Source of the DNA: Syntrophorhabdaceae bacterium | GTDB taxonomy: Bacteria; Desulfobacterota; Syntrophorhabdia; Syntrophorhabdales; Syntrophorhabdaceae | Direction: 5' to 3' | Length of the DNA: 64,000 nucleotides | NCBI GenBank assembly: GCA_963666485.2 | Contig: CAXXUO010000001.1 | Span: forward strand, 416,001 to 480,000 | Shown here: piece by piece, positions 52,049 to 55,981 of the stretch | Position numbering within the stretch: position 1 is the stretch's first letter | How the letters are laid out: the number at the start of each line of letters is the position of its first letter | Notes under the pieces: generated by a model | Told to the model about the DNA's origin: nothing | Seen by the model: only the letters and a program-made list of their open reading frames with translations | The model's database searches: none | Program-made: the position numbers and the translations under genes

Positions 52049-54235
52049 ATGCCCGAAAAAATAGAGCTTCCGATCACCGGCATGAACTGTGCCGCCTGTG
52101 CCGCCCGTATCGAGAGAGAGCTCAATAAAATGGAGGATGTGAAAGAGGCGCGGGTCAATTTTCCCCTCAAAAAAGCGGTCATCATGCCGAAACATGACCT
52201 CGAGTTGAAAGAGGTCATTACCCGCATCCGCGACATTGGGTACGACGTCGATATAGAAGGCGATATCACGGTCCGCGCTAAAAAGGAAGAAGCCGAACTT
52301 CGGAAGGATTTTACCTGGTCAATTCTTTTAAGCATCCCCATCATGGTCTTTTCCATGTGGATGGTGCTTCCCTACAATAACTATATACTCCTCGTGCTTA
52401 CCCTGCCCGTGCAATTCTATTTCGGCCTGAGATTCCACAGATCGGCCCTTGCAAACCTCAGGCATTTCACCGCGGACATGAACACGCTCATCTCGGTGGG
52501 AACGTCGGCCGCCTTCTTTTACAGCGCTTTCGTGACATTCTTCCCGCACGTCGTCATGGCAGCGGGCGTATCGATGATGACATATTTTGATTCAAGCGCC
52601 ACCATCATCTCGCTCATACTTCTTGGCAGGTATTTTGAATCGAAGGCCAAGACCAGGACATACACGGCCATAAAGCTGCTCTACGAGCTCGCGCCGAAGG
52701 AGTGCATCGTCCTGAAAGACGGGACCGAGACACGCGTACCGACGGATTCCCTCGAGGTCGGGGACATGGTGCTCATCCGGCCGGGTGAAAAAGTCCCGAT
52801 AGACGGCACGGTCGTGGAGGGGAACACGTATGTCGACGAATCAATGATCACGGGAGAGAGCATGCCGGTCCACAAGGCGCCGAAAAGCGAGGTGATCGGC
52901 GGGACCATTAACGGAAAAGGCTCGGTCACGATCAGGACGACGCGTATCGGTGCCGACACGGTCCTCGCGAAGGTGATCCGGCTTGTCGAGGAGGCCCAGT
53001 TCACGAAAGCGCCCGTCCAGCGGCTCGCTGACAGGGTGGCGGGCGTGTTTGTCCCCATAGTCATCGGGATCGGCATCTGCGCCTTTATCGTATGGTTTTT
53101 CTTTGGACCCGAACCAAAGGTCACGAATGCCGTCCTTTCCTTTGTAAGCGTCCTTATCATAGCGTGCCCCTGTGCTCTCGGCCTCGCCACGCCAACGGCC
53201 ATCATGGTCGCAACCGGAGTGGGTGCGAGGCGGGGGATCCTCATTAAGAGCGCCGAGGCCCTCGAGCTGACCAACAGGACCCGCCATGTCCTTTTTGACA
53301 AGACCGGGACCCTTACCGAAGGAACGATCGTCCTGGCGGATATCATCCCCTTCGACCATTGTACGGATGAAGAGGTCCTCCGGATAGCGTACAACCTCGA
53401 GCGGCCTTCCGAGCACCCCTTTTCCGAAGCACTGAGAAAAAAGACGCAGGAGATGAACATCCCGTCGGCCGGCGTCGACAACTTTGAGGCGATTGCGGGA
53501 AAAGGGATCAGGGCAACGGTAGACGGGACAGTTTACCGGATGGGGAACAGGACCTTCTACGAAGATGAAGGAGGCGCCCTCGACGAAAAAGTACTGCACG
53601 TTTATGAAGAAAAAGAGAACTCGGCCGCTTCGCCGGTTATCCTGTGGGACGACTCGGGCATAATAGCCCTTCTGACCTTCAGCGATACCGTGCGCGAAGA
53701 ATCGGCCGGCGTTGTGACCGAACTCAAGAAAATGGGCATCGACCCGGTGATGATAACAGGCGACAGCCAGAACGGGGCGCGATCGATAAGCTCGCGGGTC
53801 GGGATCGACACGTATTTCTCCCGGGTCCTTCCGGACGGGAAGGCATCGATCGTGGAGGATTTCAAAAAGAGGGGCGTCACCATCATGGTCGGGGACGGCA
53901 TCAATGACGCGCCGTCGCTTGCGGCCGCCGACATCGGCGTCGCCATGGGCAAGGGCACGGACATAGCCATAGAATCGGCGGACGTGGTCCTGATGAAAGG
54001 TCAGCTGTCGCGGCTCGTCAGCCTCATAAAGCTCTCAAAAAAGACGATCAGGATCATACGGCAAAACCTGTTCTGGGCGTTTATCTATAACGTTCTCGGA
54101 ATACCCATCGCGTTCGGCGCACTGTATCCTTTCTTCGGTATAAGGCTCGAGCCGATATTCGGCGCGGCCGCTATGGTCGTGAGCTCCATCTCCGTGGTGA
54201 GCAATTCATTAAGGCTCAGGCTGTTCAAAGACTGA
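52049..54235 (+). CDS. copA: Copper-translocating P1B-type ATPase
   Basis: GMNCAAC metal-binding domain, TGES, CPCALGLATP, DKTGT, SEHP, GDGINDAP, YN and MxxSS. Confidence 0.93.
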   Translation: MPEKIELPITGMNCAACAARIERELNKMEDVKEARVNFPLKKAVIMPKHDLELKEVITRIRDIGYDVDIEGDITVRAKKEEAELRKDFTWSILLSIPIMVFSMWMVLPYNNYILLVLTLPVQFYFGLRFHRSALANLRHFTADMNTLISVGTSAAFFYSAFVTFFPHVVMAAGVSMMTYFDSSATIISLILLGRYFESKAKTRTYTAIKLLYELAPKECIVLKDGTETRVPTDSLEVGDMVLIRPGEKVPIDGTVVEGNTYVDESMITGESMPVHKAPKSEVIGGTINGKGSVTIRTTRIGADTVLAKVIRLVEEAQFTKAPVQRLADRVAGVFVPIVIGIGICAFIVWFFFGPEPKVTNAVLSFVSVLIIACPCALGLATPTAIMVATGVGARRGILIKSAEALELTNRTRHVLFDKTGTLTEGTIVLADIIPFDHCTDEEVLRIAYNLERPSEHPFSEALRKKTQEMNIPSAGVDNFEAIAGKGIRATVDGTVYRMGNRTFYEDEGGALDEKVLHVYEEKENSAASPVILWDDSGIIALLTFSDTVREESAGVVTELKKMGIDPVMITGDSQNGARSISSRVGIDTYFSRVLPDGKASIVEDFKKRGVTIMVGDGINDAPSLAAADIGVAMGKGTDIAIESADVVLMKGQLSRLVSLIKLSKKTIRIIRQNLFWAFIYNVLGIPIAFGALYPFFGIRLEPIFGAAAMVVSSISVVSNSLRLRLFKD

Positions 54236-54243
54236 CCCGCCGG

Positions 54244-55107
54244 TTATTTCTGCTGCTCGTCGAAATATTTCCCGTTTACCTCCCATCCGATGACAGCAAA
54301 ATCGGCATGTGAGGTTGCAAGCGGATCCGACTTCCAGGAAAAACCGAGTGACGGCACGCTTACCTTTGCTTCCGCCTCGGCCTTTGCCCGGAACCCCTCA
54401 AACCGGAAATGTTTCTGCTTATCCTCGATAACGAGCGCCTCCGGCATCGCTGTCCATACAACCTTCAGGCTCATCACCGCGGGCACATACCGGGCTGTGA
54501 GTTCCGGCCATTTCGGCTGGTCGATGACCGGTGTAACGATCTCAAGGGTCGCCTGTTTCGCGTCGGGCGAGACGGTGAGGCTGCCCTTTGGCACGGGGGC
54601 AACCCAGTACAGCCCCGAAGGCGCGATAGCAGGATGAAAATCGTGGATCTTTTTCCCCCCGGCGACCGCCGGGCCCTCAAAGAGGGTGAGTCATATATGG
54701 GAAAATGTTCCCGCGTGCTCCTGCCGGCCCGCGAAATATTTCCCCTCCATGAAGGAAAAATCGGTGCTGGGGGCCCCGAACGCTATGCGGTTGCCACGAT
54801 CATCAGTTCCCATTCCGGTAAAGGCGTTGCTTCGCGCCACGTGCCCTTTGAAATGGTATATGCTCGACGGTTCCATGCCCGGTCCCGGCGATTGGTTCTG
54901 GCTCCCATTCTTGTCAAGCCAGGGTATCGGGAAAGGATCGCTGCCCCCGTTTGAGGGTTCGCTCCACTCTTCGGCGGTCTGACCAATCCCGTGGTTCGCA
55001 AAAAGAAGGGACGCCCCGGCGATAAGGAGCACGCCCGATCCCATCATTTCGCGCCTCGTCAGACCGTTGATCCCGCCAGGTCTCTTTTTACCGGAATACT
55101 CCATCAT
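54244..55107 (-). CDS. Tat-signal protein with an in-frame UGA: candidate selenoprotein (about 287 aa)
   Basis: Track ORFs 54691-55107 and 54244-54594 are in one frame, separated only by TGA 54693-54691 (HAGTFSHI-U-LTLFEGPAVAGGKKIHDFHP). LTRREMM Tat motif. The AAGGAGG RBS favours ATG 55104. Confidence 0.75.
54658..54690 (-). promoter_or_regulatory. Putative SECIS element of the Tat-signal protein
   Basis: UGA-CUCA-CCCUC(UUU)GAGGG-CCCGGC(GGUC)GCCGGG; the GGUC loop starts 23 nt after UGA. Confidence 0.7.
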
Positions 55108-55238
55108 GGGCCTCCTTCGATCTTTGGTAACATTATCAAAATACTAATCATTTTCCTGCTGCGGGCAAGCATTCCGCCTCGTCCGGCCTTGCAGGGCTTT
55201 CCTTCCGGTACCCGAGACTGTGTCCCAATAAGCCATTA

Positions 55239-55394
55239 CGTCATTCCGCCGGCTTTTGCGGCGGAATCCAGCGTCTTTATCTTCTTTATCCAACTCCATG
55301 GGGAGAAGCATAGTTGTGGCTGTTATCCTATCTTACTGATATTATGGGAGAACAAAACACCAAAGACACTGGATCCCGGCAAGCCGGGATGACG
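55239..55394. repeat. Inverted pair of CGTC-type REP palindromes
   Basis: cgtcattccgccggcttttgcggcggaatccagcgtctt ... aagacactggatcccggcaagccgggatgacg. Confidence 0.75.
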
Positions 55395-55543
55395 GGATGT
55401 AGTTTATATCCATAATTTCCGCACTTCCCTGTGGGAATAAAGACTCTGACACCCGTGGTTTGCCTGGAAATCTATGTACGTTGTAGAATATAGAGGATAT
55501 GTTACAATTCTCGGATAGACCTATTATCAAGGAAGGGGGAGTC

Positions 55544-55981
55544 ATGAAGATACCGGAGTATATTACAAAAGTCGAGGTCACAAGATTCTGCAAGGAGCTG
55601 AAGATCAGGGATTGGGCGAAACTGAAAACCGCGAAGGTATTGCCAAAAGAAGCGAAGGCCATCCTTGCCGCGGTGAACGAGTCAAAGATGAACATCGATC
55701 CGGAAGAATTCCTCAAAGGTCTCGAGGTGGAACTCGAGCACGGCGTCAGGTTCAAGGATGCCAATATCACCAATAACCACCCTCTGGTCACCGGCAAGAT
55801 CGTCATCGCCCATCTCAAGGAGTCCCTGGACTATTACAAGCTTCTCGAAGTAGCGGAGCTTGAGGGCGACCTGCATAAGGCCGTGGTAGCAGGGGATATG
55901 AAAAAGATAAAAAAGGAATACAAGAAATTGGCGCTGGCGAAGATAATTCTGGCGAAAACGGTGGCGGCGCAGGTGAAATGA
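55544..55981 (+). CDS. DUF5661-like protein
   Basis: GLEVELEHG..NIT..TGKIVIAHLKE..DYY motif; GGGGGAG RBS. Confidence 0.75.
   Translation: MKIPEYITKVEVTRFCKELKIRDWAKLKTAKVLPKEAKAILAAVNESKMNIDPEEFLKGLEVELEHGVRFKDANITNNHPLVTGKIVIAHLKESLDYYKLLEVAELEGDLHKAVVAGDMKKIKKEYKKLALAKIILAKTVAAQVK

Follow-up and report, generated by a model that had tools for sequence, protein, structure and literature searches.

A conserved in-frame UGA marks a widespread family of putative exported selenoproteins

One reading frame across a conserved UGA

Two minus-strand open reading frames (ORFs) in a 64,000-nucleotide stretch of DNA from a Syntrophorhabdaceae bacterium (assembly GCA_963666485.2, contig CAXXUO010000001.1, forward-strand positions 416,001 to 480,000; the whole stretch is called the window, and positions are counted from its first letter) very probably form a single intact selenoprotein gene, 55107..54244, in which a UGA codon is recoded as selenocysteine (Sec). 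An ATG-initiated ORF of 138 amino acids (55107..54691) and a GTG-initiated ORF of 116 amino acids (54594..54244) lie in the same frame, and the sole stop between them is TGA 54693-54691. This arrangement, claimed in an earlier account made from the letters of the window (the sequence-only reading), was confirmed by frame reading. The 32 codons from the TGA to the GTG read LTLFEGPAVAGGKKIHDFHPAIAPSGLYWVAP. A strong Shine-Dalgarno sequence, GAAGGAGG (55118-55111), stands ahead of the first ATG; inspection of the sequence upstream of GTG 54594 found no Shine-Dalgarno and nothing comparable, as expected from the earlier statement that the downstream ORF lacks a convincing ribosome-binding site. 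Translated through the UGA, the product has 287 residues, carries the motif T-R-R-E-M-M followed by a hydrophobic stretch, contains no Cys, and reads ..GTFSHI-U-LTLFEGPAVAGGK around the UGA codon. Conservation and genomic context show one gene with a recoded UGA, together with a downstream hairpin, Sec machinery, an export motif and no family match; the inserted residue would be Sec. The codon is recoded in the way usual for bacteria; the protein family and its chemistry are new. The features of the locus are as follows.

54244..55107, minus strand: full predicted selenoprotein gene, 287 codons plus a TAA stop, with the Sec codon at position 139; homologues are conserved over residues 13-287
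55107, minus strand: ATG start codon, possibly replaced by the next ATG at 55104
55111..55118, minus strand: Shine-Dalgarno sequence GAAGGAGG, 3 nt before the first ATG and 6 nt before the second
54997..55059, minus strand: twin-arginine signal region, residues 17-37, TRREMMGSGVLLIAGASLLFA, a motif read from the sequence
54871..54951, minus strand: conserved N-terminal segment of the mature protein, NGGxDPxPIPWLDKNGSxNQ...EPS; columns 53-82 are nearly invariant in the clade A alignment, and structure prediction here is of low confidence
54247..54870, minus strand: predicted all-beta barrel domain, residues ~80-287, from AlphaFold2 models of both clades
54691..54693, minus strand: UGA codon 139, read as Sec; TGA is conserved at this column in both clades
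54658..54673, minus strand: hairpin resembling a Sec insertion sequence (SECIS), 17 nt after the UGA, with stem CCCGGC/GCCGGG and loop GGUC at 54667-54664

A promoter and terminator scan of 54000-55600 gave nothing useful on the minus strand.

The evidence that carries this assignment is the conservation of the UGA itself. A database search returned 78 homologues among 1297 candidates, and 57 of these break off at the residue immediately preceding the UGA column, as expected of a stop codon that many organisms share. Scanning one genome per species yielded 91 relatives, of which 80 were kept as the clade A loci; TGA occupies the equivalent column in all 80 (73 by a first pattern and 7 by follow-up), and the protein is conserved on both sides of it, with 50-76% identity to the query on either side. 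The carriers are metagenome-assembled genomes (MAGs) labelled with about nine phyla. Acidobacteriota form the majority (Acidoferrum, Sulfotelmatobacter, Angelobacter, Bryobacteraceae, Terriglobales); Syntrophorhabdus and Syntrophorhabdales MAGs reach identities of up to 76%, other Deltaproteobacteria include Syntrophaceae and Desulfomonilaceae, and further labels are Nitrospirota, Verrucomicrobia, Gemmatimonadaceae, Dormiibacterota, Limnocylindrales and Betaproteobacteria. Among 401 sampled genomes from the phylum of the window, 2 carry the gene, the window's genome and a second from its genus, and each copy contains a single TGA. This patchy distribution, with most members in Acidobacteriota, suggests that the gene may have spread horizontally.

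At E <= 0.001, an exhaustive profile search yielded 655 representatives, the majority being halves that end or begin at the UGA column. Three distant full-length members (P0145, P0156 and P0201, ~35% identity) led to a sister clade, clade B, in which PIPGG replaces PIPWLDKNG and the UGA lies within the motif F-x-F-I-U-L-D-L-Y. A soil-metagenome scan with these three proteins gave at least 472 relatives among at least 600 pattern matches. From these, 80 loci were kept, and all 80 have TGA at the equivalent column (47, 26 and 7 over three passes). The clades align with each other by profile-profile comparison (hhalign; probability 100, E 4.7e-42, 252 columns), and their Sec columns coincide. With TGA at 160 of 160 loci and homology on both flanks, the kind of homologue that the sequence-only reading had named as support was found, and its proposal of one hidden gene for an exported selenoprotein of the twin-arginine translocation (Tat) type stands. 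Clade A genes themselves terminate with TGA in 43 of 80 loci, TAA in 20 and TAG in 17, and clade B genes terminate with TGA in 18 of 55 loci; TGA is thus not reassigned in these organisms. A few clade A loci depart from the intact form: L069 (4001-4840) has a second stop inside its signal-peptide region, and in L041, L057 and L073 the RR region is missing upstream of an otherwise intact gene. Damage to the copies or faulty assembly of long-read MAGs may account for these four.

Hairpin, decoding genes and residues at the UGA column

The window's hairpin, CCCGGC-GGUC-GCCGGG (54673-54658), lies within the minimum-free-energy fold, and its loop starts 23 nt past the UGA, bearing out the GC-rich stem and GGUC loop first described from the sequence. 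The bSECISearch model reportedly accepts UGA-to-loop distances of 16-37 nt. Clade A as a whole has a 7-bp hairpin from 16 nt after the UGA (examples are GGGGACC-GGC-GGUCCCC and GGGGCA-GGC-UGCCCC); the family loop, GGC or GGU, begins 20 nt after the UGA, and the hairpin is part of the per-sequence minimum-free-energy fold in 70 of 77 clade A rows. For the named structure in an 81-row alignment, three pairs change on both sides (GC/AU; AU/GC/UA; CG/AU), compensatory cells number 73 against 33.1 +/- 4.2 in shuffles (0 of 500 shuffles reach 73), and the covariation score is 0.322, compared with 0.167 in shuffles and 0.05-0.125 with slid partners. The 45 nt after the UGA are more stable than other windows of the same gene by 4.6 kcal/mol in clade A and 4.1 kcal/mol in clade B (median ranks 0.09 and 0.17). 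Most clade B loci have a hairpin with a G-rich loop at the same offset, which is retained in several loci whose peptide there differs (FARPGGVQ, FTDSAESNQ, FKGPPAEDFSNQ) and which gives independent support for an RNA element. In many clade B loci (L089-L168, first 50 nt after the TGA) an outer helix, CUGGAUC with GAUCCAC/G, encloses the hairpin, making a two-tier stem longer than the clade A stem. An Rfam scan of 54560-54760 found no SECIS family and returned chance rows only.

The window's genome, which is 99% complete, encodes the genes needed to read such a codon and for which the sequence-only reading had advised a search: a tRNA-Sec, two selA, two selB and one selD. The selA and selB copies lie at G000:C3:23114-24217, C3:19439-19567, C1:229872-230966 and C4:168614-168754. 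On contig 3 one selA is close to a selB, and the remaining copies are not clustered; both selA genes are full-length. To our knowledge, duplicated Sec machinery is unusual. The selD gene (G000:C2:512556-513467) itself has an in-frame TGA, in the context ..FVRGGG-U-ASKIGPGDL.., and so encodes the Sec form of selenophosphate synthetase, a known type of selenoprotein. When selA alone was scored, it was present in 30 of 30 other carrier genomes (in pieces in G009) and in 2 of 14 controls. We propose that SelB and tRNA-Sec would decode UGA 54693-54691 as Sec under the direction of the hairpin 17 nt downstream, which is of the bacterial SECIS type.

Residues other than Sec are scarce at this column. 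Cys homologues, which had been put forward as a sign to look for, do occur: P0201 has Cys, and so does the P0009 cluster, whose 10 members come from ENA, JGI and Logan. Such forms are rare, two clusters against hundreds of TGA forms. Trp appears in P0002-P0004, P0006-P0008, P0145 and P0156 (JGI) and in P0082 (Logan). Those that were looked up (P0003, P0006, P0145, P0156 and P0082) exist as JGI or Logan gene calls only, on contigs of 1.1-6.5 kb, and the remainder are JGI calls too, on contigs of 1.1-2.4 kb. L040, to which P0002 is near-identical, has TGA at this codon, and the clade of P0145 has TGA in 80 of 80 loci. Judged from these records, the Trp forms are most likely TGA codons that a gene caller translated as Trp under an alternative code, with P0082, on its 6.5 kb contig, set apart. 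Gene calls of this kind can both hide selenoproteins and create false Trp homologues.

Several observations weigh against an exported selenoprotein decoded through this hairpin. The folding energy of the window hairpin is unexceptional within its G+C-rich stretch (z = -1.38; 12 of 200 shuffles are as stable), and two of five covariation measures do not exceed their shuffled values (pairs changing on both sides, 3 against 3.6; further pair types, 6 against 6.8). RNAalifold predicts no consensus pairs for the 81-row alignment and just three invariant G-C pairs for 77 rows. The paired columns are coding, so that amino-acid covariation (P..V versus Q..A) is confounded with RNA pairing, and in the window and the three relatives closest to it there is an additional codon and the hairpin is displaced by ~3 nt (one codon) relative to most relatives. 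At the column itself, some full-length relatives carry Gly (P0005), Ser (P0080) and Glu (P0081), which means that a folded product does not strictly depend on either Sec or Cys. As to export, the window protein reaches no TAT-signal model in the Pfam and NCBIfam scans, and Pfam TAT_signal is found in 9 of 80 clade A members, all below the cut-off (best E 0.0052).

Three other accounts of the UGA have to be set against recoding as Sec. Decoding of codon 139 as Trp, Cys, Arg or Gly by a near-cognate or suppressor tRNA would be the natural reading of the nine Trp entries, were they not short-contig gene calls, with TGA in the near-identical counterpart of P0002 and throughout the clade of P0145; the use of TGA as terminator by the same genes (43 of 80 and 18 of 55 loci), the presence of selA in every other carrier examined and a hairpin conserved at SECIS distance further make this account very improbable. 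That the gene is simply broken, by a nonsense mutation, pseudogenization or sequencing error, is what its division into two ORFs under standard gene calling would lead one to expect, and the second stop of L069 and the lost RR regions of L041, L057 and L073 indicate that some copies may indeed be damaged or mis-assembled; it is refuted, however, by TGA with conserved flanks at 160 of 160 loci, and we give it practically no weight. As for the letters at the codon, contigs of runs X1 and X2 show zero differences over 54100-55268, although both come from one sample, possibly the window's own source, and are not independent support, and a relative of ~94% identity from another study's run spans the codon with none of its 40 listed differences (26 more are unlisted) at 54691-54693. 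Equally negligible is the idea of two separate neighbouring genes that share a frame by chance. It can point to the GTG-initiated 116-residue ORF, but the 32 codons between TGA and GTG are among the most conserved of the family (LTLF..IHDFHPPIAPSGLYW), no Shine-Dalgarno precedes the GTG, the halves occur in no other frame or order across 160 loci, and both structure models place them in one barrel.

Export, fold and possible function

The N-terminal region was searched for a Tat motif, that is, an S/T-R-R-x-F-L-K-like sequence plus a hydrophobic region. A Tat-like motif, [x]RRx[hydrophobic][hydrophobic], is present in 74 of 80 clade A loci; one more has another RR, and in the other five the 5' end is truncated or damaged. 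The clade B member L107 matches TIGR01409 with 20.8 bits (cut-off 16.7). The T-R-R-E-M-M motif and hydrophobic stretch of the window product agree with the twin-arginine signal first read there, and at motif level we infer Tat export: the signal would send the folded product to the periplasm.

AlphaFold2 models were obtained for both clades. For the window protein the mean predicted local distance difference test (pLDDT) is 77.7 and the predicted template modeling score (pTM) 0.75, with values mostly above 85 from residue 80 onward and below 50 for residues 62-71; for the clade B protein pLDDT is 86.4 and pTM 0.82. Both models are all-beta, with the same topology and the same order of long strands. 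In the model, the long strand 129-144 holds Sec139, and the strand that follows holds H155 and D156. The mature part would form an up-and-down beta barrel in which the long strand of Sec139 runs beside that of His155-Asp156. Invariant residues of clade A include D65, K66, Q72, R92, D102, T115, D116, M120, R128, H137, U139, T141, D156, H158, W168, D196, R235 and E276; E79, D116, M120 (>=90%), U139, H155 (>=90%), D156, P159, G165, W168, D196, E276, N278 and G279 are common to clade B as well. The His/Sec metal site with four His that had been suggested near the UGA did not survive this comparison: H131 is variable, and H137 and H158, invariant in clade A, are F and N in clade B, leaving H155 as nearly general, itself lost in some clade B members (QVASIDPGN, QIVDLNPGN). 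The failure of His conservation lowers the specific proposal of a His-rich site, not metal binding in general. The description of the protein as cysteine-free holds for the window's orthologue and fails for most relatives, which have Cys elsewhere (VARC, TCQLEA) at non-conserved positions; the family alignment contains no conserved resolving Cys.

Our working proposal for the function, held tentatively, is a stand-alone periplasmic enzyme in which Sec would be the reactive centre, as a redox-active or nucleophilic selenolate, aided by Asp156 and His155 on the surface or in a cavity of the barrel. A rather doubtful alternative makes Sec the ligand of a metal or cofactor, together with His, Asp or Met, loaded in the cytoplasm. 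Tat-type signals are typical of cofactor-bearing proteins, and loading before export would explain the RR motif of 74 of 80 loci; H137, U139, D156, H158 and M120 are invariant and H155 nearly so in clade A, and D116, M120 (>=90%), U139, D156 and mostly H155 are kept in clade B, while the near absence of Cys forms would suit a demanding ligand role. A few loci also lie near metal genes (P-type ATPases in 5 of 80, a multicopper oxidase in L038), but such neighbours are a small minority in heterogeneous surroundings; the exchange of H137 and H158 for F and N and the occasional loss of H155 in clade B leave no His-rich ligand set common to the superfamily, and no metal-binding family, PDB sequence or fold was matched. 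That the protein does something else than serve as a selenolate enzyme or as a Sec-ligated metal or cofactor site seems unlikely.

A bolder reading, which we consider possible but would not bet on, is that the family represents a class of obligate-Sec periplasmic enzymes with a chemistry of its own: the barrel would fold in the cytoplasm, perhaps around a metal or organic cofactor held by Sec139, Asp156 and His155, then pass through the Tat system and carry out a reaction that Cys cannot support. Obligate-Sec chemistry would explain why UGA is retained in both clades at ~35% identity and why Cys forms are scarce. If true, a common and unseen selenium-dependent activity may exist in soil and peat Acidobacteriota, Nitrospirota and syntrophs.

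Genomic context and relation to known systems

No conserved gene neighbour emerged from all-against-all clustering of flanking ORFs in the 80 clade A or the 80 clade B loci. The most frequent clade A neighbour, an ORF of ~160 amino acids (..IDLPLKILVWED..; for example L070:3452-3931), occurs in 9 of 80 loci, on the same strand and mostly directly upstream; it may be DUF302-like. Pfam was run on 78 of 158 chosen flank ORFs, with heterogeneous results: Kup next to L009 and L010, methionine synthase, isocitrate/isopropylmalate dehydrogenase and regulators, as well as a few pyridine-nucleotide-disulfide oxidoreductases, one AhpC/thioredoxin-like protein, the multicopper oxidase of L038 and two P-type ATPases. 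In the window, a P1B-type heavy-metal ATPase of the Cu type (52049-54235, plus strand), with an N-terminal GMNCAAC metal-binding domain containing CxxC and with a CPC motif, is convergent to the selenoprotein gene, the stop codons lying 9 nt apart. This adjacency had been suspected of being coincidental, and with P-type ATPase ORFs in just 5 of 80 clade A loci it is a local arrangement and not a conserved one. Upstream of the gene, window positions 55239-55279 (~40 nt) contain a palindrome, TTCCGCCG..CGGCGGAA; the stretch has a word depth of 60-500 against ~7-8 in the flanks and many contig ends and starts in X1, X2 and X5, and it resembles a short palindromic repeat dispersed through this genome and those of its relatives.

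Searches for a known family gave consistent negatives. The window protein has no Pfam or NCBIfam match at E <= 1, seven relatives and all 80 clade A members match TAT-signal models only, a profile search against PDB sequences returned chance rows only (E 1.6 and 1.8), and Foldseek found no PDB match at E <= 0.001 for either model. A protein atlas search with the natural Cys homologue P0009 was discarded (best score 0.82, no usable lead), as was a wide fold search with VIA-align, which gave generic barrels only and no specific fold. A literature search found no paper describing this selenoprotein family. Table 1 of a 2026 catalogue (PMC13188914), as available to us, gives 119 prokaryotic selenoprotein families, each with an InterPro, NCBIfam or Pfam-type signature. 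It has no Tat or periplasmic beta-barrel family, and the words periplasm, Tat, Acidobacteri and Syntrophorhabd are absent from the portion of the catalogue's text at hand. None of the 119 families listed there fits by its Pfam or NCBIfam signature, families with a cd or PTHR signature alone lying outside the scan. BSepDB (PMC13326102, in its accessible part) was built from previously reported families, 111 in total. The available part of PMC12013277 (deep-Sep) describes screens that accept a candidate if Sec homologues are already known or if the top hits contain two or more with Cys; having almost no Cys forms, the present family would escape that filter. The impression from the letters that the protein resembles no known selenoprotein family is in line with all of this. 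We conclude that the gene belongs to a superfamily of at least two deep clades that is widespread, probably exported and nearly obligate in its use of Sec, and that is absent from Pfam, NCBIfam and, as far as signature scans and the accessible text of the 2026 catalogues reach, from those catalogues.

Gene callers split or truncate the gene nearly everywhere (57 of 78 homologues terminate at the UGA, and some of the rest show a spurious Trp), which makes the family invisible in annotation. It adds a putatively exported selenoprotein that lacks the thioredoxin fold and is common among lineages of soil and peat, in which selenium use has received little study. Since both deep clades keep Sec almost without exception, the family is well suited to the question of what selenium can do and sulfur cannot. 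In practical terms, annotation would gain a hidden Markov model, and at ~25 kDa the protein is a tractable subject for expression, metal analysis and structural work.

The closest parallels in method are the predicted hypothetical selenoprotein families (deep-Sep DG, DW and DF; GOS_B and GOS_C; Tso and Sao), which were recognized by the same criteria, conservation of an in-frame TGA among homologues together with a downstream hairpin in bacteria that use Sec. Those families carry signatures in the available Table 1 of PMC13188914, whereas neither clade described here matches any model; published screens, moreover, lean on abundant Cys homologues (PMC12013277, in the part available), which are rare in the present family. 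For the fold, the soluble and membrane up-and-down beta barrels that offer a comparison are the 8-stranded outer-membrane proteins NspA, OmpW and OmpA, the Diels-Alderase barrels CghA and Fsa2, AttH (2ich), 25-phosphosteroid lyase, TbpB and hemophilin. The outer-membrane barrels among them have a lipid-facing hydrophobic belt and a C-terminal aromatic beta-signal. For exported selenoproteins, the reference systems are the formate dehydrogenase (FDH) alpha subunit FdnG/FdhA (TIGR01553) and the periplasmic [NiFeSe] hydrogenases. Both are Tat substrates. The present protein has no sequence or domain similarity to either; its mature part is ~25 kDa and all-beta, and it has neither a Mo/W-pterin or Ni-Fe domain nor genes for partner subunits. 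FdhA and the hydrogenases both appear in Table 1 of PMC13188914, as available. Recoding through UGA and a SECIS element, one essential Sec and, as far as the motif of the present family tells, the twin-arginine route are common to them and the family described here.

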